IMG/VR virus record: IMGVR_UViG_3300045996_001613 | Coordinates: 1-64,000 of that record | From: a virus | DNA length: 64,000 nt | Reading direction: 5' to 3' (one strand) | Shown: positions 3,952-49,229 of the stretch, piece after piece | Layout: each line of letters starts with the position of its first letter | How positions within the stretch are numbered: the stretch's first letter is position 1 | The notes under the pieces: model-generated | What the model saw: the letters and a program-made list of their open reading frames with translations, nothing else | Told to the model about the DNA's origin: nothing | Databases searched by the model: none | Program-made: the position numbers and the translations under genes

Positions 3952-5445
3952 TTATACGGTGGTGAATGTGCCCTTGACGAATGCCTGCGGACGGATGGGA
4001 GCCATGCCCAACCTCTGCTCGGCCAGCACCGCGAGCATGTTGCTCGTGAAGAAGTCCTTGTGCTGGTCGGCAACCCTCACCGATGCATCCTCGCGGTCGA
4101 GCAGGTAGATACCCTGATCGAAGGCTCCGAGGAGGAAGGCGTTCTCCCTGATGCTCGTGGTCACGCGGACATTGAGCCTCCACAGACGCTCGATCCCACC
4201 GTCGACGACAGTCACCCACACATAGTGATTGTCGGTCCCCTTGGCAAGCTCGATATCCTCCCAATCGTTCGGGTGGATGAGCAGTGCGCTCGGGGGGAAC
4301 TGGCTGATCTGCGTCTTGGTGATGGCCCGACGGATGTGGTCGAGACGCCACACACCGTTCGCGTCAGCGGTTCCGGATGCTTGGTTGGCAAGCACCTGCA
4401 CGTTGGGGTTGTTCATAATCCCCTGCAAATTGGGGGAAACACCGTTTCCGTAGAGCAACTGCAACTCGACGCTAAGGTCGAGACCGGCAAGCAGCCTGTT
4501 GTTGATCAGTCCCTGCAACTGCGGTGCGTCAGAGAGAGTCTGGCGGTGCACTACCATGTAGTGCGCAACCGTCCCAATGGGGTACGACTTCTCCGTGAAC
4601 CCGAGCAGCGAGGCTTCGGGCTTCTGGGCACCGTGAGGCGTCATGCCTATCGCGTCCGCAACGACCGGATCGTTCGCGGCATAGGCAGCGCCCGTCGCGC
4701 TAGAGATGGTGACAACCCTCGTGGTCTCGTTGATCGCGGTAATGACCTTCGCGGCACTACGGGTCTGCGGAGCCGCAGCCGTAGCAAGGAAGATCTCCTG
4801 CCCCACGAAGAGACCGGACGTGGACTTAACCGTGATCGTGGTCGCGACGTTGGTCGCGGGCGCGTCCAACTCGGTATACACGTTCGCGTATCCCAACTCC
4901 TCGATGTAGGACACCGTGTCGGAGTTGGTCTGGATCACCGGAATCAACTGACGAATGTCGTTGACACGCTCCGGCTGGCTTATGATGCCTAGATCCTGCG
5001 GCTCGATGAGATGTCCCATCTGGCCGTATCCGGGACCATCTGTCGAGGTCAGAGCCTTGCGGCTCCTGTAGGGCTCAAAGCCCTGGAATCCCACGATGTC
5101 CGACTGCCCGCGGCCACCAGAAGCGATGAACTTCTTGAATGCCTCAGACCCGACGAACTCGGCCCCGATGTTCTTGCGCTCGACCCGGCCACCGAGGACG
5201 CGACCGTCCTCCGCGTTGATCTTGTTTACCTCTGCCTTTATCTCTTCCAGAGATCCAGTCAGATCCTCAAGACGGGAGTTGTACTCACCCATCTTGTTCA
5301 CTACGGCTTCGTCAACCGTAGTCCGAACGCCATCCTTGATTTCTTGGAACTGGCGCTCCTGCTCCTTGACGACGTCCTTCATCTCACCCGAGACGCGGTT
5401 GACCTCGCCAATTATCTGATCTCTAACAGTCTCAAGACCACTCAT
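3952..5445 (-). CDS. major capsid protein, HK97 fold, with N-terminal scaffold region and E-loop insertion
   Basis: coiled-coil N-terminus; QLLYGNG, IHPNDW, LGAF, LAEQRLG..PIRPQAF motifs. Confidence 0.92.
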   Translation of the reverse strand: MSGLETVRDQIIGEVNRVSGEMKDVVKEQERQFQEIKDGVRTTVDEAVVNKMGEYNSRLEDLTGSLEEIKAEVNKINAEDGRVLGGRVERKNIGAEFVGSEAFKKFIASGGRGQSDIVGFQGFEPYRSRKALTSTDGPGYGQMGHLIEPQDLGIISQPERVNDIRQLIPVIQTNSDTVSYIEELGYANVYTELDAPATNVATTITVKSTSGLFVGQEIFLATAAAPQTRSAAKVITAINETTRVVTISSATGAAYAANDPVVADAIGMTPHGAQKPEASLLGFTEKSYPIGTVAHYMVVHRQTLSDAPQLQGLINNRLLAGLDLSVELQLLYGNGVSPNLQGIMNNPNVQVLANQASGTADANGVWRLDHIRRAITKTQISQFPPSALLIHPNDWEDIELAKGTDNHYVWVTVVDGGIERLWRLNVRVTTSIRENAFLLGAFDQGIYLLDREDASVRVADQHKDFFTSNMLAVLAEQRLGMAPIRPQAFVKGTFTTV

Positions 5446-15681: not shown

Positions 15682-15704
15682 GTCAATAGTATACACGAAA
15701 ATAG

Positions 15705-15779
15705 TCAGGAGGGGGGAGGCTCGAACTCCCTCATTGTGGGCCACAACCACAAGCTCTAACCCGGTAAGCTACCTCCTGA
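15705..15779 (-). tRNA. tRNA-His (GUG), atypical
   Basis: cloverleaf; anticodon loop TT-GTG-GC; TTCGAG T-loop. Confidence 0.8.
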
Positions 15780-15782
15780 AAG

Positions 15783-15854
15783 TGGTCGGAGGTAGGTTTG
15801 AACTACCGTCTCCGGGATTTCACTCCGGCGCTATACCTCCTCAGCTACCCGACC
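15783..15854 (-). tRNA. tRNA-Phe (GAA)
   Basis: GGTCGGG/TCCGACC acceptor stem; loop GT-GAA-AT; TTCAAAC T-loop. Confidence 0.8.
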
Positions 15855-18747: not shown

Positions 18748-18765
18748 TTGTGAACGGATTCACAA
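18748..18765. promoter_or_regulatory. Rex/CRP-type operator 1
   Basis: TTGTGAACGGATTCACAA. Confidence 0.7.
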
Positions 18766-19680: not shown

Positions 19681-22324
19681 ATGGTTATTGAGTTCTTTAT
19701 AACGGATGATACAGAAGGGATCGAGTACGGTCCGTTCGGCACCCCGCAAGAGGCTTATGATATAGATGTATCAATGGATATGTATAAGCCTGCAGTAGTA
19801 CGCCGGATAGATTGTGACTATCGTTCCGATGTTGAGGTAGACCGGGATGGGAATGATAAGCCTAGCTTAGACGCCCACTACGATAGGCTTAACGCTCGCG
19901 ATAGGGCTACGTACGGTATGAGCCCGCAGCAGATAGAGCGACACGACAGTATGTAACAAATGTATCCAGGGTGTAGCGTGCACCACGGCGTACGGGGCGA
20001 ACCCACTACACCCACTAGTAATAAGGGCTACGAGGTCAGGAGATAAGGGTATGTCCGCCACAACAGTCGAGGTCAAGAAGTACGGTGCATGCACCATCCG
20101 TATCAAGGTTACAGTGGTACGATGATAGCCTACAGGATCTATGAAGAAAGGGACGGGCAACTGTACCCACTGCAGCACAAGACACGCACCCCGGTACCCT
20201 TGAACGAATGGATGCAAGCAGACGTAAAGATGGCGCGTGATGGGTCAGGCAACAGATGGTACAAGGCGGGCTTCCACTCTGTACCTCGTATCGAAGATGC
20301 CGAGGCTTATATGCAGCATTTCAGGTCAGCCCGTCGCGAGAGGTTAAGGGTCGTCGAGGTCGAGGTTAGCAACACATGGAGCAAGGACCACTCGCCTGCC
20401 CCTGTGATCCTGTCGGAGTACATGTTGGTTAAGGGTATCGTAACTACGCAAAACACAGATTTCAATCCGAGGTCTCAGAGCTGTGATCTCGGGGAGGAGG
20501 CATAGCATGCTAGCGCAGGACGTAAAGCCTTTGGAGCGTGAGCTTCTGGACCACCTGTATCAGGTGTTGCTTGAAGCAGAGAACGATGAGCTACCGAACC
20601 CAGACCGGATACGCAAGGCACGCGCCGACTATGCCGCATGCGAGGAATGGTATGCAAGGAAGTACAGCGTAGACATGGAGGTTGCATCGTAATGCATGTT
20701 GCGAAGTACGAGATCAAGGCAGACGGGCGCAGGGTCGGCGTCGCGGATAAGCCTGATCAGGCCAGCGACGCGAGGAAGAAGTATCGCAACTATGGCTACA
20801 AGGTGGAGGTCAAGAAGTTCAGAGTGTGAACGAATTCACAGCGGGGGATAAGGGTAGGGCTTAGACTAGTGTCAACGGTAACGGAACGAACGGAGGACAG
20901 GATGCAGTACCTAGACCGGAACTACAGCAGCAAGGCCGCAGTCAAGAGGGCTCTGGCCGAGGGTGCCGAGATCAGGGTCAACGTGGTTGAGCCGCAGATC
21001 TCGGGCCGCAGCGTCAAGAGCAAGAAGTTCGGCACCGTGACCGAGCACACCGTCGCGGGTCCATGGTTTCCCCAGCCGCATAGCTGGTACGGCAACGTCC
21101 GCGTCAACGACGCGGGCCTCGTGGTCGAGGTCAAGTAATGGCGCAGACCGACGAGACCAAGGCGATCAAGGCAAAGGTACGGGCCGCGAAGCAGAATCTG
21201 CAGAAGGCAGAGAGGCTGATCCTCGACGCGGAAAAGGGCGAGGTCAGCGTGCACATCGGTAGCCTACTGGCCGCGGGATACGCGATGATGGCAACACACG
21301 ACGCGCAGGACGCGGAGCGCAACGCTCGCGGACTGCACGCGGCGACGGAGGACAGCTACCACGAGGAGGTCTCGGCGTAACGCCGGGACCTCTCTACCCG
21401 AAGGGAGCAGCAATGCCAGCCATCACCCCGGAGCAGATAGACCAGAAGTTCGGCGGACAGTACTCCGAGAACTACACCTTAGGCGTACGCCATGGGGTCA
21501 AGGCCGAGACCAGCGTAGTGCACGCGACCATCGGTCGCGCAGAGGACAACCTGTTCGCCACGACCGAGGCGCAGTGGGACTACCTCGACGGTTGGGTTCA
21601 GGGGCGCGTCGAGTGGGACGCGGCGGTTGAGGGCGATCAGGTCTACGAGCAGTATGCTCGGATGTTCACGGACGGCAAGTTCGACGTGACAGACATGGTG
21701 CGATTCTTCCTCGCGGACCTCGCGACGGAGGACGTGTACATCGCGATACCCGCGGCAGGCGACCCGTTCGCGGCTGCTCTGCGCGAGGCCGAGTGCGATA
21801 TGCTGGCTCTGTACCTCGACGACAAAATCACTGCCGACCAGTACCTCTATGCGAGGGGAGCGTAAGATGGAGCAGAAGTACGTCGTAGCCGAGCAAGACC
21901 CGAGCCTCAGCCCGAGCCGTGAACTCGGGCTGTCCTCCTCCGGTGTACGGATGGACCTGTACTCAGCCCTGTCGACGGCTGCGGAAGCAGCCCGCAGGTA
22001 CGGCACAGCACATGAGGTCCGCGTCGTGACCCGCGAGTATGACTCCGGCACGTTCGCGGTCGGGGCCAGCCGGTACACCGTCGACCCCTCGGAGGTCAGC
22101 GCATGAGCATGACTCTGACGGACGTACGCAACGCGGTACCAGCCATGACCGACGGCATGCTGGTGGAGCTATACTGCCAGTACAGCACCTTTGCCGACCG
22201 TAACCCTGACTCCGACGAGGGGCGATACAAGGCGAAAATGGAGATCGTAGACGCGGAGTCTAAGAAGAGGCACCGTCCACACGTGGACGCGAAGAAGGCG
22301 ACGAAGTGGGGGTATTGGAAGTGA
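19681..22324 (+). other. run of small hypothetical early genes (19681-19956, 20122-20505, 20507-20692, 20692-20829, 20902-21138, 21138-21380, 21413-21865, 21867-22106, 22103-22324)
   Basis: co-oriented, RBS-bearing, often translationally coupled ORFs. Confidence 0.65.
20825..20840. promoter_or_regulatory. Rex/CRP-type operator 2
   Basis: TGTGAACGAATTCACA. Confidence 0.7.
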
Positions 22325-23049
22325 ACATCGCAGTGCTATTCGACGGCGCAGGGCTCGCACGACTCGGGCTAGAGCAGGCGGGGCATACGTGCACCGGATA
22401 CGAGCTAGATCCGTGGAAGCACTACCTCTCGCAGTTCGTGGGCTCGGGGAATTCCGTGCTCGCGGACGTACGCGACGTGGACCTGTCCCCCTACGATGCA
22501 GTGTGGGCATCGCCCCCGTGCCAGTGGCACAGCAGCGCACGCACGCAAGGGGACCCGGTCTCGGGCTTCGCGACCGATCTCCTAGAGTGGTCTCTGAACC
22601 TCGACGTGGGTGTCCTGTGGGTGGAGAACATCATGAGCCAGACTGCCAGCCTCAATACGTGGGGCACCAAGTACAACGCGGCTCAGTTCCTATCCGTCCC
22701 CATCCAGAATCGCAACCGCATCGTCGGCGGTCACTATCGCGAGCCGTTTGTGTACGCGAGCTACCGGCGTACGTTCGCGGGGATCTGCCCCTGCATCACG
22801 GCCAGCGAGTACAAGGGCTGCGCCTCCGACACGCGCAGGGCGTCGCGCTACTACGGGCGTCGCCTGACTGTCGGGGAGTGTGCCGACCATCAGGGGCTCA
22901 CCATTCCCCCCGAGTGGCACACCGTACCCGAGGGATTCACGCCGGGACGTTGGAGGCAGAATCTCTACGAGGCGATTGGTAACGGGGTCCCCGTCTACAT
23001 GGCGCGTGGCTTCGGTGAGATGTACCCGGCGAAATCCAGGGGATTGTAA
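22321..23049 (+). CDS. DNA (cytosine-5) methyltransferase, short
   Basis: LFDGAG, SPPCQ, ENI, QNRNR, RRLT..EC...QG, IGNGV. Confidence 0.9.
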   Translation: MNIAVLFDGAGLARLGLEQAGHTCTGYELDPWKHYLSQFVGSGNSVLADVRDVDLSPYDAVWASPPCQWHSSARTQGDPVSGFATDLLEWSLNLDVGVLWVENIMSQTASLNTWGTKYNAAQFLSVPIQNRNRIVGGHYREPFVYASYRRTFAGICPCITASEYKGCASDTRRASRYYGRRLTVGECADHQGLTIPPEWHTVPEGFTPGRWRQNLYEAIGNGVPVYMARGFGEMYPAKSRGL

Positions 23050-23070
23050 CTGCCGGCACAAGCTCGAGAT

Positions 23071-23086
23071 TGTGAACGAATTCACA
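23071..23086. promoter_or_regulatory. Rex/CRP-type operator 3
   Basis: TGTGAACGAATTCACA upstream of a GATAAT -10 box. Confidence 0.7.
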
Positions 23087-23159
23087 GACAACGGTAGCCG
23101 AGTAGGAGATAATGCGGGAGCAATGAGAAGGACAACGACAAGGGGAGAGACATGTGAAC

Positions 23160-23466
23160 TCAGAGGGGCGAGCCTGACGGTCCTGACCCCAACAGGCGAG
23201 ACGGTCGGAGTACCAGACCGGCGGGGATGTGGGCGCGAGCCCGTGCATGAAAGAGAGCACACCCAGCGAGGGCCGCTGGTAAGGAGGCTCACATCCCCTG
23301 ATGGCGAGGCAGATACGGGCGCAGTGGTGCGAACGGCTCATGGGGCTGATCACCCCGGCAAGCCTAGTAGCACGGTGAAAATCCCACGGCTAACTGCCGT
23401 GCCGATGGCGACAATGGGGCTGATCACCCCGGAGTCGACCGGGAAAGCTGCGCCGGTATCTGCCCC
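23160..23466 (+). ncRNA. putative large structured RNA with twin UGAUCA-loop hairpins
   Basis: long helices 23223-34/23287-98 and 23308-24/23448-64; 19-nt repeat at 23340 and 23414. Confidence 0.65.
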
Positions 23467-23486
23467 GACCACGAATGGAGGAGCAC

Positions 23487-23669
23487 ATGAGACCGCCAGC
23501 ACGACATACGGTGGACGGGGTGCACAAGCGCACCGGGATGATAGTCACGGTGAAGCTGGGCTTCGCCTCTCACCGGGATGCGCACAACTACATAACCAAG
23601 CACCTGACCGAACTGCACGTCAGGGGAATAGACCCGGTGCACGTCGGGACGGACAGGACGGGCGCGTAA
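23487..23669 (+). CDS. small hypothetical protein inside ncRNA cluster
   Basis: GGAGGAG RBS; 60 aa. Confidence 0.55.
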   Translation: MRPPARHTVDGVHKRTGMIVTVKLGFASHRDAHNYITKHLTELHVRGIDPVHVGTDRTGA

Positions 23670-23738
23670 TGGGTTCGACGGGTGCAACGGGCGCGAGCGC
23701 CCAACACCCGGAGGAGAGTTCGATTCTCTCCGCGTCCA
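23660..23738 (+). ncRNA. mini-tmRNA (tRNA-like domain only)
   Basis: G3.U70 and A73 acceptor stem, stemless D-loop UAAUGGGUUCGA, helix 2a, 3-nt linker, T-arm. Confidence 0.8.
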
Positions 23739-23741
23739 CTA

Positions 23742-23872
23742 CGAGTCCCGGCATGGTACGGGAGAGACACGCTGAAACACCACGCACGGCCACTGCGGTA
23801 GTCATGACCCGCATGCTTTCAAAGTGTCTCTGGTTGAATATACGCGACTCTCCCACACCATGCCGGGGCTCG
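23742..23872 (+). ncRNA. putative structured RNA
   Basis: CGAGTCCCGGCATGGT pairs with ACCATGCCGGGGCTCG; nested helices. Confidence 0.55.
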
Positions 23873-23913
23873 GCTGTAGTCAACACCGACCGGGAGGTCT
23901 GACCGTGGACACT

Positions 23914-24750
23914 ATGGACCTGCACAACTGGCGTGAATGGAGCGCAGAGCAGTTCGCCCTCGACGCGGAGGCCGAGGTCTCCGAGGACGAGATAGCCGCG
24001 AGCTACGCGGCCACGAACCCCCACGAGGAGGTAGAGTAATGACCGGAGTACACGGCCCACTGGTCGTCCGCGAGGTCTGGATCGTCGGGCCAGTGATGTC
24101 GGAGTTCGTCGGCTTCATGAACCGCGTAAATTCCCGCATCAAGGTCGGCAGGATAGCCGAGCTAAATGGGTGGGAGGTATGGGATCGCGAGATAAACGAG
24201 ACACACGACACCTTTTGGCTGAGGGAGGCATCATGACCACCACGAGCATCGCGAAGGCCCGCCAACAACTCAAGCGGCAGTACCGGAAGATATCGACCGG
24301 CGTGCTCTATGGATGGATGGCCGTCTACCTCGTCGAGGACAACGAGTACATGTGCACCACAATCCGCGAGGTACTGCGGGAGAGGGGCGAGCAGATATGA
24401 TGCACCTAGAGTGGCATCTGGACAAGCTGAACGACGCGGCTAACGAACTAGCCCACAACGCCAAGCACCGCGAACTGACCGAGGAGGAGATCGTCGAGTT
24501 CAAGCAGGAGTTCACCGACCAGATCCGCAACCTGCAGGACGAGGTATCGTCCCTCGGAGGACACCTGACCGACGCGGTAAACGAACTGTACGAAATGCTG
24601 CCGAAGTGCGAACAGTGCGACGAGATCCTGACCGAGGACAACATCGCGGACACGGCAGACCTACGAGACGCGAAGGTCTGCGCCGACTGCCAGTACGACA
24701 TGGACCCCATGAACGACGTGAACTACGTCGGTCACCCGATGCACTACTAA
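23914..24750 (+). other. four small hypothetical genes (23914-24039, 24039-24236, 24233-24400, 24397-24750; last has Zn finger)
   Basis: coupled ORFs with RBS. Confidence 0.6.
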
Positions 24751-24751
24751 T

Positions 24752-24767
24752 TGTGAATTCGTTCACA
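24752..24767. promoter_or_regulatory. Rex/CRP-type operator 4
   Basis: TGTGAATTCGTTCACA, reverse complement of sites 2 and 3. Confidence 0.7.
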
Positions 24768-24830
24768 GATATCACGGCACAATTTGTTACACTTGAGGTC
24801 AACGGTAAGGACGATCAGGAGGTAGGCAAG

Positions 24831-25451
24831 ATGCAGTACAAGGTGGACCCGAAGATCCAAAAGCTCTGCGACGAGGGCGTGAAGTACATCGCGGAGTTCT
24901 TGGATCTAGTCGACACCCGCAAGCTGTACGAGTTCAAGATCCGGCAGTCTGATAGCGCACGCGCCATCCCCTGCGCGTATGGCAACTGCAAGTCTCCGCG
25001 TCGCTCGTCGATTCTCGGTGGCGGCAGCGGCCAGACCGCGGGATTCCGCATCTCAGTCTCCCTCAAGGGCAGCGACGACGATTTCCCGTGGGCTCCGGGC
25101 TCGTGGGGTCGACGGGGCTATCTCCGGCACGCGGGTGAAATCCACCACGGACATGTAGGCACTACGCTAGCCGAGCAGATGGTCTTCGTGTCCGGTCACG
25201 AGTTCCTGCACTACGCGGCCCTGTCGGGGCTGTGTCCGGTGCGATACAGCCAAGAGTACAACGCGGATCGGTTCGGATACGATATGATGCATTCCTTCCG
25301 AGAAGGCGTCGATCCGGTCTTCCTCGCGGAACACTTCGATACCAACATCTGCCACGACCCCGGACACTACGCGCATCAGGTGCCTACGCGAATCGCGCAT
25401 CAGCGAGCACCGTACGCGGCACTGCCCCCGACCATACGGAAGGGGATCTAG
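24831..25451 (+). CDS. zincin-like metallopeptidase
   Basis: HEFLH plus downstream E..AD. Confidence 0.55.
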   Translation: MQYKVDPKIQKLCDEGVKYIAEFLDLVDTRKLYEFKIRQSDSARAIPCAYGNCKSPRRSSILGGGSGQTAGFRISVSLKGSDDDFPWAPGSWGRRGYLRHAGEIHHGHVGTTLAEQMVFVSGHEFLHYAALSGLCPVRYSQEYNADRFGYDMMHSFREGVDPVFLAEHFDTNICHDPGHYAHQVPTRIAHQRAPYAALPPTIRKGI

Positions 25452-28272: not shown

Positions 28273-31200
28273 GCAAGCAGAAGATAGAGGAACTGGTTGG
28301 AGAGGTCCTGATGCACGTGCGTGCCGACCTCACCCACGCGGAGAGCAATCTGCGCCTTCTCCGCCGCCAGTCGTCCGACAACAACGTGGACTGGTTTCTC
28401 GGAAACATCACGAAGCAGGCCACCCTAGCTGCGGCATCGCTGCAGGTCATGCTCAAACAACTAGACGAGAAGGGACTGACCACCGCGGAACTTGCGGCTG
28501 CGGTCGAGGAGAGGGAGTCCTTTCAGGAGGCATTGGAGTCCAGCCCTCAGGTCACGCCCGCGATGCTGCAGGACTGGTTCGGGGACAACCCCTCTGACGG
28601 GATGGCGAAGTACGGGGATGGTGGGATCGAAATCAACCCCGATCTCGGGGCCGAGTACAAGAGTGCATTGGGGGAGCACCAAAAGGCACAGGAGGAGATC
28701 GCGAAAGCCCGGCGGTTCCTCGACGTGGAGTCCGTAGTCGGGTATTCCAACGTCAGCCAGTGCGAGGAGACGGACGAGCCCCACGAGATCGAGGCGTTGG
28801 GTGACCCGTCCAACCCGGAGGAGGTCTCCCACTAGTGGGAGACCTGATCTACTTCCCCGGCTCTGATCCGGAGGAAAGGGAGAAGCGTGCTCGCAAGCTA
28901 GAGCGTGCGCGTAACAACCTCTTGGATATCTTCGACCATCTTGGCCTCGACGAGGCGAGGGTAGAGTACCTAGAGCTACTAGAAGAGGCGAAGAAACAGC
29001 GTCTCACGATTGAGTTCTTGGAGCGCAAGCATAGGATGGTCTCCAAGAACATACACGCCTACGAGCAGGAAGAGAGAATCGTTCTCAAGTTCGACAAGAC
29101 GGGGAGGTACGTAGGGTACGTGGATAGGGACACCGGGGAATTGAAGAAACATGTACGGGAGGAGACGTGAGGCACTGCTACTGCATCGGTCGCTGCCGGT
29201 GTCGAGCAGGATGCCTCGACGTAGTGATCAGCGTAATCTTTGGACCCATCATCATCCTGTGCATTGTGCTCGGGCTGATCGAGTGGCTGTTCGGATAGGA
29301 GATTAATGGTAGATACAGTTGAGTCCACGCCGCTGACCAAGATGCTCGACGAGGGTATCACGGCGCTGACGAAGGAAGAACTGATCGGACTGTGGGGGTA
29401 CTGCCGGAAGCACGGATACACCGCGACCGCGGAGTTAGCGGTCGAGGAGATGGGGGATAGGGGGATGGAACTGTGACGAAGAAGCAGTTTTTGCTGGTGC
29501 TCTTGGTCGGCGCGATAAATGGAATGCTGCTCGGTCTGATCCTGGGCATGCTGTACACGTGGAATATCTACAACTAGGAGAGCATATGACTGAAACGAGG
29601 AAGTCGCCAAAGACGAAGTGCGACGCGACCGGATACGTGCTCGGACAGCCGATTCGCGAGACCTTTGAGCACGACACGGACACCGGGCTCAGTGCCAACA
29701 GGCAGGCAGTGCTGTGGGCTCAGGAGAAGGGCGTCTCCGTACTAGAGACCGCGAAGCCCCCGTACCGCAACAAGGACAGGAACTACTACGCGACCAACCC
29801 CTCGACAGGGAAGATGAATCGGATCTCGTTCAACAAGGCGAAGATCATTACGGCTATGATCCCAGCCATGTTCGCGGAAGAGGGTGCCGAGTCGGAGGAG
29901 GACAAGCGCCAGATCGTCGAGAGAGTGATCCGACGGGAGATCTCGGGGGTACCCGAGTAATGACGCTCCTGTTTGCGTTTATCCTTTGGTTTGCCCTGAT
30001 GTGCTGCATGGCGGGTCCGTACCTCATGCTTCTGGTATGGGCATGCAACACCGCATGGGGGAAGAGATCTCCGCAATGGGTGTGGGGTGGCTCAATAGTC
30101 GTGGGGTATCCCCTACTGATGTGCGTTGCCGCGTACGTAGCAGGCTACTGGTACGTGATGCACTCATGACCACCTTTGAGAAGCTGTACGAGATCTATGG
30201 TATCTGGCTGGCTCTGCTGTTTACGCTGTTACTCGCGGGCGCGTGGGCCATGATCGAGATGTCCAAGTGGGCCGACCGAGAGGGGAGCATCAACGCGGTG
30301 GTCGTGGTGATTGCGTACGTGGTGCTCTGCATCGCGTGCACGTACGTGATAGTGACGTTGTGGGGGTTACCTGTATGAAGCTGGTCTACTGCCGAGAGTG
30401 CCAAGACGTATTCAAGCTCACTACCAAGGAACTCCGGTTCTGCGAATGCGGAGAAAGTGCCGGCAGTTACAAGCCGGATGGACTGCATGCGCTGATCTAC
30501 GGTGCCGCGATACCCCTCGGCTTTGACAACGGATCGCTCCTACGTGCCTTGCAACAAAGAGCACCAGGGGATTTCAAGCGCCCGAGGTATGGCACGAGGT
30601 TTGAGGCGTTCGTGATCCCCCACCAGACCCCGACCGTGAATGGAGGCAGATGGACGTAATGAAGACGCCGCGGTTCCGTAAAGAAATGGAGGTCGAGATC
30701 TGCCCCTTCCAACATGGCCGAATCTGTGCCGACGAGGACATTCTGCGTCTGGATGGACGACGGGGCACGGTAACCAATGTCAAGAATCACTCCCAAGGAC
30801 AGATCGTGTATGTACACGTCGAAATGGAGAGGGCCGCGATAGCCTACCTCACCGAGATACTGAAACCCATGGTTGAAAGTCAACGGTAGTCGAGTACAAT
30901 AGGTACAAGCGTCAATAGTGGCGCAGTAGCCATGTCGTGCAAGCGACACAAGGAGGCGAACATGGCGGAAAAGGTAGCGAGCACGCGACACTTCGTGTGC
31001 TCACCGGCAGTGGCGATGGGCCTCGCGAGGACCCTAGTCACCGGACTGCGGGACGAGGTTGCGGTCAAGTGCTTCAACCGTGAGCCGCAGAAAATGGCGG
31101 AAGCCCTGATGGAGTGGGCTGAGGAGAAGCGCATCCTCAAGGGCGAAGACCCCAACGACAACCTGCTTGCGTGGGCCATGCGTGAGGGACGGGGCAAGTG

Positions 31201-40743: not shown

Positions 40744-41727
40744 ATGTCTAAACTCACACACCTAGACCTCTTCGCGGGTATCGCGGGGTTTACATATGGG
40801 TTTGAACGTGCTGGATTAGAGACCGTCGGGTTCTCCGAGATTGACAATTTGCCCAACAGGGTACTAGCTCGTCGATATCCGGGGATTCGCAACGAAGGAG
40901 ACATACATGGAATGGACGGCAGAGACTACCGAGGGGTCGACATCGTCACCTTCGGATCGCCGTGCCAAGACTTCTCACTGGCAGGAGAGCGCCGTGGACT
41001 TGACGGAGGTAAAAGCGGCATCCTACGCGAAGCCCTCCGAATCGTTCGCGACGCCCGACCACGACTCGCTATTTGGGAGAACGTCCCCGGTGCCCTTACC
41101 TCTAACAAGCGATGGGACTTTGCTGCCGTACTCGACGCGCTGGCTGAACTCGGGGCGATGGACATCGCGTGGCGAGTCTTGGACGCGCAATTCTTCGGAG
41201 TCCCCCAGCGTCGTAAGAGAGTCTTCCTTGTCGCGGATTTTGCAGGATTCCGTGCCGAGAAAATACTTTTTGACTCCAGTCGGAGCCCGCGGCCTACTCG
41301 CACGGTCCGAGCGCAGGGGCAAGAAATTGCCGGTACTCTTGGTGGAGGCTCTGGAGATCGCGGCTGGGCACCGGACACCGACCGAATGACGTTTATACCC
41401 GTGGGCACGCGCAACGGGGAGCAGAAGTTCATCGTGGAGGACGAGTCCCTACCCATCGCGATACACCTGACGCAGGACCCCATACATGGATACATTGCGC
41501 CGTGCATGTCCGCGGGAAATAAGCAGGGCTGCGCTACCATCGGGGTCTTCGACGGTGTAGGAGTGCGTCGACTCACGCCTCTGGAATGCGAGAGGCTGCA
41601 GGGCTTCCCGGATGGGTGGACCGATGTGGACGGGGCCAAGGACAATAAGAGATACAAAGCCCTCGGAAATGCTGTGTCTCCGGCGCAAACGACGTGGCTA
41701 GGGGAGCAGGTGGCACATGCCCTATAG
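40744..41727 (+). CDS. DNA (cytosine-5) methyltransferase
   Basis: DLFAGIAG, GSPCQDFS, ENV, PQRRKR, RLTPLECERLQGFP, LGNAV. Confidence 0.95.
   Translation: MSKLTHLDLFAGIAGFTYGFERAGLETVGFSEIDNLPNRVLARRYPGIRNEGDIHGMDGRDYRGVDIVTFGSPCQDFSLAGERRGLDGGKSGILREALRIVRDARPRLAIWENVPGALTSNKRWDFAAVLDALAELGAMDIAWRVLDAQFFGVPQRRKRVFLVADFAGFRAEKILFDSSRSPRPTRTVRAQGQEIAGTLGGGSGDRGWAPDTDRMTFIPVGTRNGEQKFIVEDESLPIAIHLTQDPIHGYIAPCMSAGNKQGCATIGVFDGVGVRRLTPLECERLQGFPDGWTDVDGAKDNKRYKALGNAVSPAQTTWLGEQVAHAL
40907..41389 (+). CDS. overprinted ORF inside the methyltransferase (EcoHK31I beta-like arrangement)
   Basis: GGAG RBS; SLS.IL...VP.KYFLTP....GLL.R..RRGK.LP motif. Confidence 0.6.
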   Translation: MEWTAETTEGSTSSPSDRRAKTSHWQESAVDLTEVKAASYAKPSESFATPDHDSLFGRTSPVPLPLTSDGTLLPYSTRWLNSGRWTSRGESWTRNSSESPSVVRESSLSRILQDSVPRKYFLTPVGARGLLARSERRGKKLPVLLVEALEIAAGHRTPTE

Positions 41728-43448: not shown

Positions 43449-44855
43449 TTGGCGTATAAGGCGATCATAGCGCGAGTCTACACCCGTCCACACCCCAACG
43501 CGGATCGCATCCAGCTTGGGGAGTGCCGCGGCTATCAGGTAATCGTGGGCAAGGATGTAGAGGACGGGACCCTCGGAGTCCTGTTCCCTCCGGACGGTCA
43601 GTTGTCCCACGAGTTCTGCCTTGCGAATGAATTGTATGCAAGGCACCCCGAGACCGGGGAGAAGATGAAGGGGTTCTTTGACAAGAACCGTAGGGTCAGG
43701 GCTCAGAAGTTTCGCGGAGAGAAGTCAGAGGCGTTCTGGACGGGTCTGGAGAGCATTTACAAGATGGCGGGACTGCGGGACTGGCGGAAGGATCTACCCG
43801 AGGGCAAGGAACTCGACGAGTACCTTGGCATGTCCCTATGTCAGAAGTACGTCACCCCCGCGACGCGCAGGGCTCAGGCCAACAAACAGCAGGCGGCTCG
43901 ACGTGAGCTACCGAATTTCCACAAGCACTTCGACACGGATCAGTTGAAGAGGGAGATAGACTACATACCCGAGGGGGCGTTGCTGTACTTCACGGAGAAG
44001 TTACATGGCACGTCTCAGCGCAGCGCATACCTCACGGTCGAGTCTGACCACAAGCTGCCGTGGTTGCAGAGGCTCGGGTTGTGGTTGAGCCGCATTCCTT
44101 TTGCACCCCCAACGCAAGACGAACACCTGCTAGGCACGCGCAACGTAGTCCTCGGTCGGTACGAGGGCAAGAGCTACTACGGATCTGAGGGGTTTCGGTA
44201 TCGGCACCATGACCGCATTAAGGACAAGCTGCACCTTGGAGAGACGGTGTACTACGAGGTTGTCGGGTTTACCGGGCCTATCTCAGGAGTGCCCGAAGAC
44301 CCCTTCCGGGCGTGGGACGCGAACGTCGCGCCGATCATGCCCGCGGTCAGCACCAAGGCGCTAAGAGACCATTGGGTGTCTTCTCCTGATCAGAAGGTTG
44401 CCGAAAGCGTCAAGGGCCGGTTTCCCGAGATGTACGGCGACACTATGTGGTACACGTACGGCAATTGGGAAGCGGACAGTCCTGCAGCCCCTCGTGCGAT
44501 GGGTGGATCGGAGATCTACGTCTACCGCATCACGCAGCAGAATGCGCAGGGCATCGTGCTCGACCTATCGTGGGAACAGGTGAAGGGACGGTGCGAGGAG
44601 TTGGGCGTCCCGCATGTGCCAGAACTGGCGGCACACAAGCACCACTGGAGAACGGAAGCCCTTATGGAACATGCGGAACAACTGGCCGAGGGACCCTCGA
44701 CACTCGACAGGACTCACATACGCGAAGGCGTATGTGTCCGTTGGGAGAAGGGAAAGAAGATAGGTATACTAAAGCACAAGTCATTCGAGTTTCTAGTGCT
44801 GGAGGGCGTGGTGAAGACCGACGAGAACTATGTAGACTTGGAGGAATCCTCGTGA
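43449..44855 (+). CDS. RNA ligase (DRB0094/Rnl5-like, N-terminal OB domain)
   Basis: HPNADRI, EKLHGT (motif I), YYEVVG, REGVCV, KHKS.EF. Confidence 0.85.
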   Translation: MAYKAIIARVYTRPHPNADRIQLGECRGYQVIVGKDVEDGTLGVLFPPDGQLSHEFCLANELYARHPETGEKMKGFFDKNRRVRAQKFRGEKSEAFWTGLESIYKMAGLRDWRKDLPEGKELDEYLGMSLCQKYVTPATRRAQANKQQAARRELPNFHKHFDTDQLKREIDYIPEGALLYFTEKLHGTSQRSAYLTVESDHKLPWLQRLGLWLSRIPFAPPTQDEHLLGTRNVVLGRYEGKSYYGSEGFRYRHHDRIKDKLHLGETVYYEVVGFTGPISGVPEDPFRAWDANVAPIMPAVSTKALRDHWVSSPDQKVAESVKGRFPEMYGDTMWYTYGNWEADSPAAPRAMGGSEIYVYRITQQNAQGIVLDLSWEQVKGRCEELGVPHVPELAAHKHHWRTEALMEHAEQLAEGPSTLDRTHIREGVCVRWEKGKKIGILKHKSFEFLVLEGVVKTDENYVDLEESS

Positions 44856-48428: not shown

Positions 48429-48591
48429 TCATTCCTCCCTTGTTCGGACAGTTGCTTTTCATTCATTTTACGCTGCTTGCGTGACTCTTTCCACGTCTTG
48501 TGTCTTTGGCGCATGGCAAACAGGGTACCCAGCGCAGTGATAGTACCCGTTATGCACAGATAGAATTCTACAGAAGTCATTAGATTCCTAG

Positions 48592-48663
48592 TTGGGTATG
48601 TGGGGGTCGAACCCACCATTTCCGAGTTCCGAACCCGGAGTCACACCCCGCGACTTATACCCA
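48592..48663 (-). tRNA. tRNA-Pro (CGG), atypical
   Basis: TGGGTAT/ATACCCA stem; loop TT-CGG-AA; TTCGACC T-loop. Confidence 0.75.
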
Positions 48664-48843
48664 GCGATTACTCTGAACGTATATCGCTAGGTCGTGGTCG
48701 ATGTGAGTTTCCTGTGGTGATGTCCATAGGCCCATGATAACACATGATACGGCGCAGGCTCCCTCGTAACACACCTACGCCCTGAAGAGGACTCCATACG
48801 GGGAGTCGAACCCCACGCCTCTCCACCCGGTCCACACCCTACG

Positions 48844-48915
48844 TCGCGGGCTTGGGAATCGAACCCAATATCTCCGGCGTATGAAACCGGCGAGTTACCA
48901 TTTCTCCTGCCCGCA
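48844..48915 (-). tRNA. tRNA-Met/Ile2 (CAU)
   Basis: cloverleaf; loop TT-CAT-AC; TTCGATT T-loop. Confidence 0.85.
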
Positions 48916-49156
48916 ATGTGCCGGACGCGCCCTCGCTTCCCGGCGTGGGTACCCCGCTATGTCCACCCTTCCGTTTTACGGCCAAGGGCACGGCACCCGT
49001 CCCAATTTAGGCCGGACTCACCCCTCTGCTATCCGACTTGGGCCACTCCTCTTCACCTCGCGTGACCTCGCCCAACCGCGGCCTCCCACCATACGTACCG
49101 CGTATTTACAGGAACCGTCGGATGTCCCGCAACCCGTCCCACAGTGGAGACTCGTG
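48916..49156 (-). ncRNA. putative structured RNA between tRNA-Asn and tRNA-Met
   Basis: nested helices; no credible ORF. Confidence 0.45.
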
Positions 49157-49229
49157 CTGCGACGGTAGGAATCGAACCTACAACCTTCGCCTTAACAGGG
49201 CGCTGCTCTGCCTGTTGAGCTACACCGCA
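49157..49229 (-). tRNA. tRNA-Asn (GUU)
   Basis: canonical cloverleaf; loop CT-GTT-AA. Confidence 0.9.

Follow-up and report, generated by a model that had tools for sequence, protein, structure and literature searches.

A tag-less mini-tmRNA gene behind a recurring palindromic promoter element in an uncultured phage

The early region of an uncultured phage encodes a transfer-messenger RNA (tmRNA) reduced to its tRNA-like domain (TLD). The phage is represented by a complete 83,577-bp virus record with direct terminal repeats (IMG/VR record IMGVR_UViG_3300045996_001613), and the stretch analyzed here, called the window throughout, is bases 1-64000 of that record. Judged by its sequence, this mini-tmRNA is a real RNA gene, a TLD-only tmRNA of the DS6A type, and it is the only demonstrable RNA gene among three noncoding RNAs (ncRNAs) proposed for the locus. 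A preliminary description had read 23071-23880 as an operator-controlled RNA operon for host takeover, comprising a palindromic operator, a -10 hexamer, a large RNA, a 60-codon open reading frame (ORF60), the mini-tmRNA, and a hairpin RNA. Every feature on that list was found where it had been placed, but the interpretation stands only in part: the operator and promoter, the mini-tmRNA, and ORF60 are supported, while three separate ncRNAs and an operon made only of RNA are not. We favor, with about even confidence, a reading of the locus as the front part of an early phage operon controlled by the palindrome, with a decoy mini-tmRNA and two cis-acting rod-shaped hairpins (rods), rather than as an RNA-only operon.

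The mini-tmRNA gene and its relatives

The mini-tmRNA gene matches the Rfam tmRNA model RF00023 end to end (model positions 1-374) at 55.7 bits, above the gathering cut-off of 47 and with an E value of 6.9e-21, which bears out the proposal that a mini-tmRNA is encoded here. Twenty nucleotides forming one 5-bp hairpin replace 312 internal model positions, leaving no tag frame and no pseudoknots, and in the fold this hairpin closes helix 2a. The 7-bp acceptor stem (GGGCGCG/CGCGUCC) carries the G3:U70 pair and the discriminator A73 of alanine identity, and the remainder has the layout of a TLD, with a stemless D-loop containing GG..UUCGAC, a T-arm with GUUCGAUUC, and no anticodon arm. ARAGORN and a fast Rfam run over the whole window both missed the gene. 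CCA is encoded neither by the mini-tmRNA gene nor by any of the five phage tRNA genes, so a CCA-less mini-tmRNA is normal for this phage. A search of the phage genome for an SmpB gene found none, and the mini-tmRNA must therefore use host SmpB.

The five tRNA genes lie at 15704-15854 and 48591-49229, and three of their five trailers start with CT, like the trailer of the mini-tmRNA. Alongside them and the mini-tmRNA, the phage encodes a 468-aa RNA ligase (43449-44855; phrog_968, E 5e-58) that may serve tRNA repair.

Relatives of the locus are few. A blastn search with the locus against 50,697 phage records, in near and distant modes, returned no relative, and the best cultured portal match was below 34% identity, so that no close cultured phage was found. 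The portal search matched three related contigs (G001, G002, and G003), and of these only G003, with a portal 65% identical to that of the window, extends into the early region; a tmRNA search found none in G001 and only weak matches in G002. Soil metagenome runs hold DNA near-identical to the window, and since three contigs from the public runs (X1-X3) are identical to it, no variation could be obtained from them. More useful was a freshwater run (X8) that yielded two 151-nt contigs of an environmental variant closer than G003, one spanning the end of ORF60, the TLD, and a related hairpin arm, and the other covering a hairpin of the large RNA termed domain A below. No RNA run among the matches listed by the public-run search contains the locus.

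In both relatives the structure of the mini-tmRNA is retained through compensating changes. The variant differs from 23613-23741 at 14 of 129 positions, eight of which are listed. Within the mini-tmRNA, C33>U is accompanied by the compensatory change G40>A in its partner, C49>U turns a G-C pair into G-U, and two changes fall in loops, one of them restoring the consensus GGAUUCGAC. G003 encodes a TLD-like gene of 134 nt (contig L129, 1501-1634; 50.1 bits) with the same acceptor stem, an extra insert of 47 nt, and an encoded CCA; four of the five T-stem pairs differ on both sides between the two phages with pairing retained. Just downstream, G003 has a weak match to the permuted-tmRNA model (L129, 1603-1683; 25.9 bits, E 0.013), which hints at the vestige of another 5' TLD half.

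The gene belongs to a large family. A pattern scan of viral contigs found at least 119 loci, and the viral loci that were fetched contain at least 79 distinct candidates with at least six of seven acceptor pairs; 72 of these 79 have G3:U70, their lengths run from 65 to 95 nt, and CCA is encoded in 19. Of 15 such loci taken as a sample, 12 gave full-model tmRNA matches of 76-83 nt, 11 of them above the cut-off, and the other three gave two weaker or partial matches and one no match. Viral contigs L140, L142, L153, L155, L157, L158, L162, and L170 carry RNAs of a different type, about 85 nt long, which have an alanine-type GGGCGCG/CGCGUCC acceptor and a T-arm but neither the UUCGAC loop nor an obvious anticodon arm and which may be another mini form.

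The closest described counterpart is the RNA of mycobacteriophage DS6A (tmRNA Website), termed "TLD only" or coding sequence (CDS)-less in passages of two papers (PMC4131195 and PMC11915505), in which a molecule of this type is said to inhibit the endogenous tmRNA, perhaps by titrating SmpB. The likeness is extensive: both RNAs are 82-83 nt long, have the mRNA-like domain replaced by about 20 nt, possess an alanine-type acceptor, lack an encoded CCA, share the identical 3' context CCACUACGA, and have genes that follow closely on a same-strand protein gene. The DS6A gene differs in scoring 43.2 bits, below the cut-off, as opposed to 55.7 here, and in standing 10 nt beyond its upstream gene, whereas ours overlaps ORF60 by 10 nt; the gene described here is also flanked by two long hairpins and has a palindrome-controlled promoter of its own. 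Mao et al. (2009) is reportedly the primary source for inhibition by DS6A-type RNAs.

On our preferred reading, RNase P would free the mini-tmRNA at 23659/23660 and a 3' nuclease would trim it after A23738; the RNA would then gain CCA and be charged with alanine. As it has no message part, it would most likely compete with host tmRNA for SmpB, EF-Tu, or stalled ribosomes, and early in infection this competition would weaken the host's trans-translation and its ssrA tagging, an effect reported in the same two papers for the DS6A-type molecule. With the rest of the locus read in the same way, the mini-tmRNA could instead be a helper that, charged with alanine and together with host SmpB, frees stalled ribosomes without a degradation tag and lets phage proteins escape ssrA-directed proteolysis. 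The elements for charging and ribosome entry are all retained (G3:U70, A73, T-arm, and D-loop), the form is widely retained in phages, and some organelles keep tag-less tmRNAs and SmpB, which a passage of PMC11915505 describes as thought to be helpful there. A helper without a resume codon and a stop codon would, however, have no known route to release peptidyl-RNA from the ribosome, and inhibition by a molecule of this kind has been published (PMC4131195 and PMC11915505, in the passages concerned), so that we consider this role unlikely.

The palindrome and the transcription unit

The 16-bp palindrome in front of the locus, TGTGAACGAATTCACA, is a real regulatory site and a conserved promoter element that recurs in both phages, as far as its sequence context can tell. 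The genome holds four copies (18749-18764, 20825-20840, 23071-23086, and 24752-24767) and none of a control pattern, and all four stand at gene boundaries within 18.7-24.8 kb. G003 likewise has four copies in 14.6 kb (4153, 6493, 9199, and 11959 on contig L166), with 0.01 expected. The hexamer GATAAT following the palindrome at 23071 belongs to the sole sigma-70-like match of 22000-25000 (shuffles yield 0.7). When the sites of the two phages were aligned, six of the eight showed an nAnnnT hexamer beginning 21-22 nt past the palindrome, a spacing of 20-21 nt (TAGACT, GATAAT, TACACT, GAAAAT, TATACT, and TACACT); the sites at 18749 and at 4153 in G003 had no clear hexamer at the expected position. 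From this geometry we infer a transcript start near 23120, and the palindrome center then lies at about -41.5 relative to the predicted start.

Both the half-site consensus and the recurrence at promoters mark the palindrome as a putative operator of the Rex/CRP type. The canonical class II CRP site is TGTGA-N6-TCACA centered at -41.5; the palindrome at 23071 agrees with it exactly, and its center lies about 41.5 nt before the predicted start. The Rex operator consensus TTGTGAANNNNTTCACAA (PMC5355995 and other papers) is identical at 17 of 18 positions to the site at 23070-23087, TTGTGAACGAATTCACAG. This site differs from known Rex and CRP systems in its situation, in a phage genome without its own regulator: searches of the genome found no Rex or CRP homologue encoded, and the palindrome must be read by a host factor or by an unrecognized phage protein. 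A host factor of the Rex or CRP type would probably be the reader. Two C5 cytosine DNA methylase genes (22306-23049 and 40744-41727) are present in the window, the first of which stops 21 nt before the palindrome at 23071.

Control of the mini-tmRNA by this operator appears to be common to both phages, although the local context is not. One palindrome promoter in G003 heads a gene for 78 aa, the orthologue of window 20902-21138, and the TLD gene follows 12 nt later, so that the G003 gene also stands under a palindrome promoter. The operator and promoter control put forward in the preliminary description is reinforced by this recurrence of the same geometry within the phage and in G003, whose TLD-like gene it likewise drives. 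Viral contigs searched with the 78-aa gene yielded G003 only, and those searched with the neighboring 150-aa gene yielded no relative.

Past the promoter, 23121-23157 aligns with the 5' untranslated regions (5'UTRs) of four operons, two in this phage (20825 and 24752) and two in G003 (9199 and 11959), with the common pattern CAAYGR.AAGGAC...GGAG...ATG. In the leader of this locus, the Shine-Dalgarno (SD)-like AAGGGGAGAG precedes a start-stop, ATG TGA, at 23152-23157, and the homologous start in the other operons is ATG CAG TAC (MQY...) or GTG AAG. Since ATG TGA stands where the other leaders begin their first gene, the promoter-leader module looks duplicated and now heads noncoding sequence. 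A 23-nt stretch common to G003 and the leader was set aside, its score of 33 not rising above shuffles (mean, 23.6; maximum, 37).

No terminator-like site was found in 22000-25000, and neither a promoter-like nor a terminator-like site in 23113-24750, in keeping with the original view that the parts of the locus are not separated. The large RNA would use the same promoter (23071-23113). The transcript has no visible end at 23880, contrary to what an RNA operon closing there would require, and most likely continues through four small protein genes to the palindrome at 24752. These four genes, none of which matched a Pfam or PHROG family at the curated cut-off, are probably on the same transcript as ORF60 and the TLD. 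We thus picture a palindrome about 41.5 nt ahead of the start of a GATAAT promoter and a transcript from about 23120 that would begin with a recycled early-gene leader ending in a start-stop, run on through some 330 nt of noncoding RNA (a hairpin and a 170-nt rod), and then carry, in order, ORF60, the 82-nt tag-less tmRNA, the second long hairpin, and the four small genes. Coordinates are collected in Table 1.

Table 1. Positions of the elements of the locus in the window
Feature	Coordinates	Strand	Remarks
Palindrome TGTGAACGAATTCACA, Rex/CRP-type; regulator site of early promoter	23071-23086	none	16 bp
-10-like hexamer GATAAT	23108-23113	+	21 nt 3' of palindrome
Leader homologous to 5'UTRs of other palindrome-driven operons	23121-23157	+	
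Domain A, hairpin	23223-23298	+	closed by 12-nt arms (92% complementary)
Domain B, rod-shaped hairpin of about 170 nt	23302-23470	+	ends 6 nt before SD of ORF60
ORF60, orphan gene for a 60-aa protein	23487-23669	+	SD GGAGGAG 23477-23483, 3 nt before ATG; TAA 23667-23669
TLD-only (tag-less) tmRNA	23660-23741	+	82 nt; Rfam RF00023
Long hairpin	23742-23872	+	15 + 7 bp at base; begins 4 nt past discriminator base
Four small protein genes	23905-24750 (23905-24039, 24039-24236, 24233-24400, one ending 24750)	+	coding scores 0.39-0.71
Next palindrome copy, start of following operon	24752-24767	none	

Elsewhere the window encodes a portal protein, a major head protein, a DnaB-like helicase, the RNA ligase, the two C5 DNA methylases, and the five tRNA genes already mentioned.

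ORF60 and its overlap with the mini-tmRNA gene

ORF60 looks coding, as the preliminary description had assumed. The codon score of its own frame is 0.27, and those of the other two frames are -0.74 and -0.16. Only 0.2% of 970 noncoding-frame windows of 60 codons reach 0.27, whereas 30% of 194 coding windows score 0.27 or less. The G+C content at third codon positions is 0.78, similar to that of neighboring genes, and the three differences of the freshwater variant that are visible in ORF60 (23645, 23657, and 23663) all fall at third codon positions and leave the amino acid unchanged. The coding character of ORF60 can thus be read from the DNA alone, as can the RNA gene and the architecture of the promoter.

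The nature of the protein is less apparent. A single-sequence AlphaFold (AF2) model has a beta-beta-alpha-beta fold with a mean predicted local distance difference test score of 78.7. There is no paralogue in the genome and no relative in viral contigs, and 419 pattern matches in metagenome contigs included none; no Pfam or PHROG family and no ArfA match was found, and Foldseek searches of the PDB and BFVD returned nothing at an E value of 0.001 or below. Matches in the Atlas score at most 0.85 and are leads only. A resemblance to the small beta-beta-alpha-beta phage proteins T7 Gp2 and Dmd is weak and does not count as evidence. The N-terminal half of ORF60 (23487-23534, HTVDGVHKRTGMIVTV) is similar to a motif of which a 2077-aa tail-fiber-like protein (P0002) contains six or more repeats within residues 399-1367, the best repeat being identical at 10 of 16 positions.

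The stop codon of ORF60 lies in the D-loop region of the mini-tmRNA gene, 7 nt past its 5' end, so that the last three codons and the stop are inside the RNA gene. RNase P cleaves the 5' ends of tmRNA precursors, and a cut at 23659/23660 would leave an upstream piece that ends 7 nt before the TAA, a nonstop message still encoding 57 of 60 residues. Termination at the TAA, on the other hand, would require the ribosome to open the acceptor stem, so that each transcript could yield either terminated ORF60 or mature mini-tmRNA. A nonstop feedback through this overlap is logically sound but, with the overlap absent from G003 and DS6A, a possibility only.

Two known arrangements offer precedents. 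In Carsonella, the stop codon of smpB lies inside the tmRNA gene, although just half of the strains show this (Hudson, Lau & Williams 2014, PMC4131195, where other CDS/t(m)RNA overlaps are also treated), and ArfA is produced only from a truncated, stop-less message upon failure of tmRNA (PMC4131195). As in Carsonella, a CDS on the same strand stops inside a tmRNA gene whose maturation should leave a nonstop mRNA; the gene there is smpB and here an orphan, and the overlap is absent from G003 and DS6A. As for arfA, the stop codon would be lost by RNA processing and the level of product would depend on trans-translation activity, but ORF60 has no ArfA match, its predicted product is a beta-beta-alpha-beta protein with a fold of its own and no short basic tail peptide, and the cut would be made by RNase P instead of by RNase III or a terminator.

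These precedents form part of the case for a dedicated host-takeover module, as originally proposed, in which three separate ncRNAs act with ORF60, RNase P turns the ORF60 message into a nonstop message, and an ArfA-like gate lets the protein accumulate once the mini-tmRNA has disabled tagging. The position of the stop, which 5' maturation must remove, suits such a module. So does the freshwater variant, in which the end of the ORF, the TLD, and the hairpin arm stay linked and no change is listed in the stop codon, and the rods are among the strongest structures of the window. The relatives nevertheless argue the other way. Upstream genes end 12 nt (G003) and 10 nt (DS6A) before the TLD, with no overlap in either, and G003 has its TLD without the large RNA, ORF60, or the hairpin. 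Upstream sequence was long enough in 70 family members, and no more than 26 of these have a same-strand ORF of at least 40 aa reading into the TLD, compared with 77% at random positions, so a reading-in ORF is not enriched and not a general trait of this phage family. An ArfA-type gate would combine removal of the stop by processing with conservation in relatives, and that conservation is missing; ORF60 matches neither ArfA nor another family, and the rods match no RNA family. The elements occur independently in relatives, which undoes the idea of a conserved module, the pair of freshwater contigs being the sole sign beyond this genome that parts of the locus occur together. We regard a dedicated module as distinctly improbable.

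The rods and the meaning of the locus

On either side of ORF60 and the TLD stands a long-range helix, the two being the most prominent in the region, and neither of the flanking stretches looks protein coding. Across 23080-23440 no plus-strand frame has a positive coding score, and ORFs called over both noncoding stretches on either strand score 0.00 or less. A 340-codon open frame at 22880-23902 was rejected as a gene (codon score, -0.12), as were minus-strand ORFs over the locus (0.00 or less).

Upstream of ORF60, the 173-nt rod at 23300-23472 has a minimum free energy of -97.1 kcal/mol and a z score of -7.8 against shuffles; among the inverted repeats of the 64-kb window, its basal arms rank fourth. 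Its two direct repeats of 19 nt (23340-23358 and 23414-23432) pair together, and the minimum-energy fold contains no twin hairpins. The 86-nt stretch around domain A (23215-23300) folds with a z score of -2.7, and the freshwater contig matches 23180-23306 with 1 difference in 127 nt and diverges afterwards. Downstream of the TLD, the 30-nt arms of the hairpin are the best inverted repeat of the window; its z score is -5.0 against shuffles and -3.5 against 488 G+C-corrected window tiles, and it has no U-tract. The variant has, after its TLD, a 5' arm related to that of this hairpin. Tiles of 131 nt starting at 31179 and 45589 fold equally strongly (z scores of -3.8 and -3.4 against G+C-corrected tiles).

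Nothing ties either structure to a known RNA. Rfam gave no match at an E value of 10 or below in 23100-23480, and over 23742-23872 returned only microRNA and snoRNA models at chance level; 6S, ROOL, GOLLD, Y RNA/YrlA, and the cobalamin riboswitch were considered for the rods and dropped, there being no Rfam match at that threshold. Searches for the rods in viral, metagenome, and phage collections found no match, those with a 22-mer of domain A in viral contigs and with a pattern of the TLD end and hairpin arm in metagenome contigs found none, and single matches to the 19-nt repeat in viral contigs (L125, inside a protein gene) and to the TLD-hairpin pattern in genome contigs (L187, inside a membrane-protein gene) were put down to chance. 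The spacer 3' of the G003 TLD is unstructured (z score of -0.65), and downstream hairpins with z scores below -2 occur at 3 of 76 TLD loci, ours included, as against 2% of controls, so that a long downstream hairpin is not a trait of the TLD family.

The placement of the rods suggests what they may do. The first ends just before the SD of ORF60 and the hairpin ends 19 nt before the SD of the next gene (23892-23897), and a site directly upstream of an SD is the placement expected of a cis element. We infer that the rods would act in cis on processing or stability rather than as separate ncRNAs, and the hairpin and the "large RNA" are best treated as structured parts of one transcript. The count of three ncRNAs given in the preliminary description is left without support, the large RNA and the hairpin having no Rfam match, no counterpart in G003, and a position directly 5' of an SD. 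The early genes of coliphage T7 have RNase III processing hairpins between them, and 5' stem-loops stabilize mRNA. The rods resemble such elements in being predicted long imperfect helices of at least 20 bp, intergenic, in an early polycistronic transcript, and directly 5' of a ribosome-binding site; set against a helix of about 20 bp as the mark of an RNase III site, the predicted helices are 15 + 7 bp in the hairpin and 17 + 22 bp in the rod. They differ in having no sequence relation to the T7 elements. The rods might accordingly be RNase III-type processing sites or 5' stabilizers; once processing had taken place, one would head the ORF60 message at its 5' end and the other the downstream message.

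It could also be supposed that most of the locus is mosaic debris: a duplicated promoter-leader joined to an acquired patchwork, with rods that are DNA palindromes or recombination scars, an ORF60 that is a functionless captured fragment, and selection on the TLD gene only. The leader, which copies other early leaders with its start codon now directly before a stop, is what such a history would leave, and the region is strongly mosaic when compared with G003, which does not keep the rods. The sole remote match of ORF60 is likewise to the repeats of the tail-fiber-like protein (E 8e-5). An ORF60 without function would, however, hardly be expected to have a strong SD, codon use typical of the genome, only synonymous visible changes in the variant, and a confidently predicted fold. 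Domain A has 1 difference in 127 nt in the variant, although the TLD region differs at 14 of 129 positions, and an early region so tightly packed would not usually carry some 500 nt of useless DNA. Debris therefore seems to us a poor explanation, and its likelihood low. Least likely of all, and very improbable, is that rod, ORF60, mini-tmRNA, and rod make up a self-contained sensor-effector device, a phage-built ArfA-like gate timed by its own decoy RNA, in which each maturation by RNase P would leave a single ORF60 message without its stop, the protein would be tagged and degraded until the mini-tmRNA shuts down host trans-translation and would accumulate only afterwards, and the rods would set the ends and lifetimes of the pieces.

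Our preferred reading, an early operon with a decoy mini-tmRNA and cis-acting rods, has several observations against it. In the acceptor stem of the freshwater variant, C4 is changed to A, and the partner position is not among the listed differences. The citing papers differ, in the passages concerned, on whether the inhibitor was "a similar molecule" or the DS6A form itself. ORF60 found only itself among 5.8 billion proteins, and phmmer against 1.84 billion representatives added to the self-match only the one weak repeat match to P0002. The whole stretch 23110-23480 has a z score of -4.1 against shuffles and of only -1.7 against G+C-matched window tiles, so that the "large RNA" as a whole is not exceptional, only its rod. 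Finally, neither the large RNA nor the hairpin has a counterpart in G003, the only informative relative, and no covariation therefore backs any structure or role of the rods.

The context of this RNA, with an overlapping orphan gene and bracketing rods, is unusual and unconserved, and the kind of RNA is already known. The negative result matters in its own right, as two of the three proposed ncRNAs are without support as genes. The overlap provides a natural example of an RNA that cannot be made without loss of the stop codon of the preceding gene. DS6A was the only case found discussed in the literature searched, and tag-less mini-tmRNAs nonetheless appear to be commonly used by phages against host ribosome rescue and to go mostly unannotated. 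The locus described here puts such an RNA under a conserved early promoter of the Rex/CRP type in two related phages, which fits a role at the start of infection.

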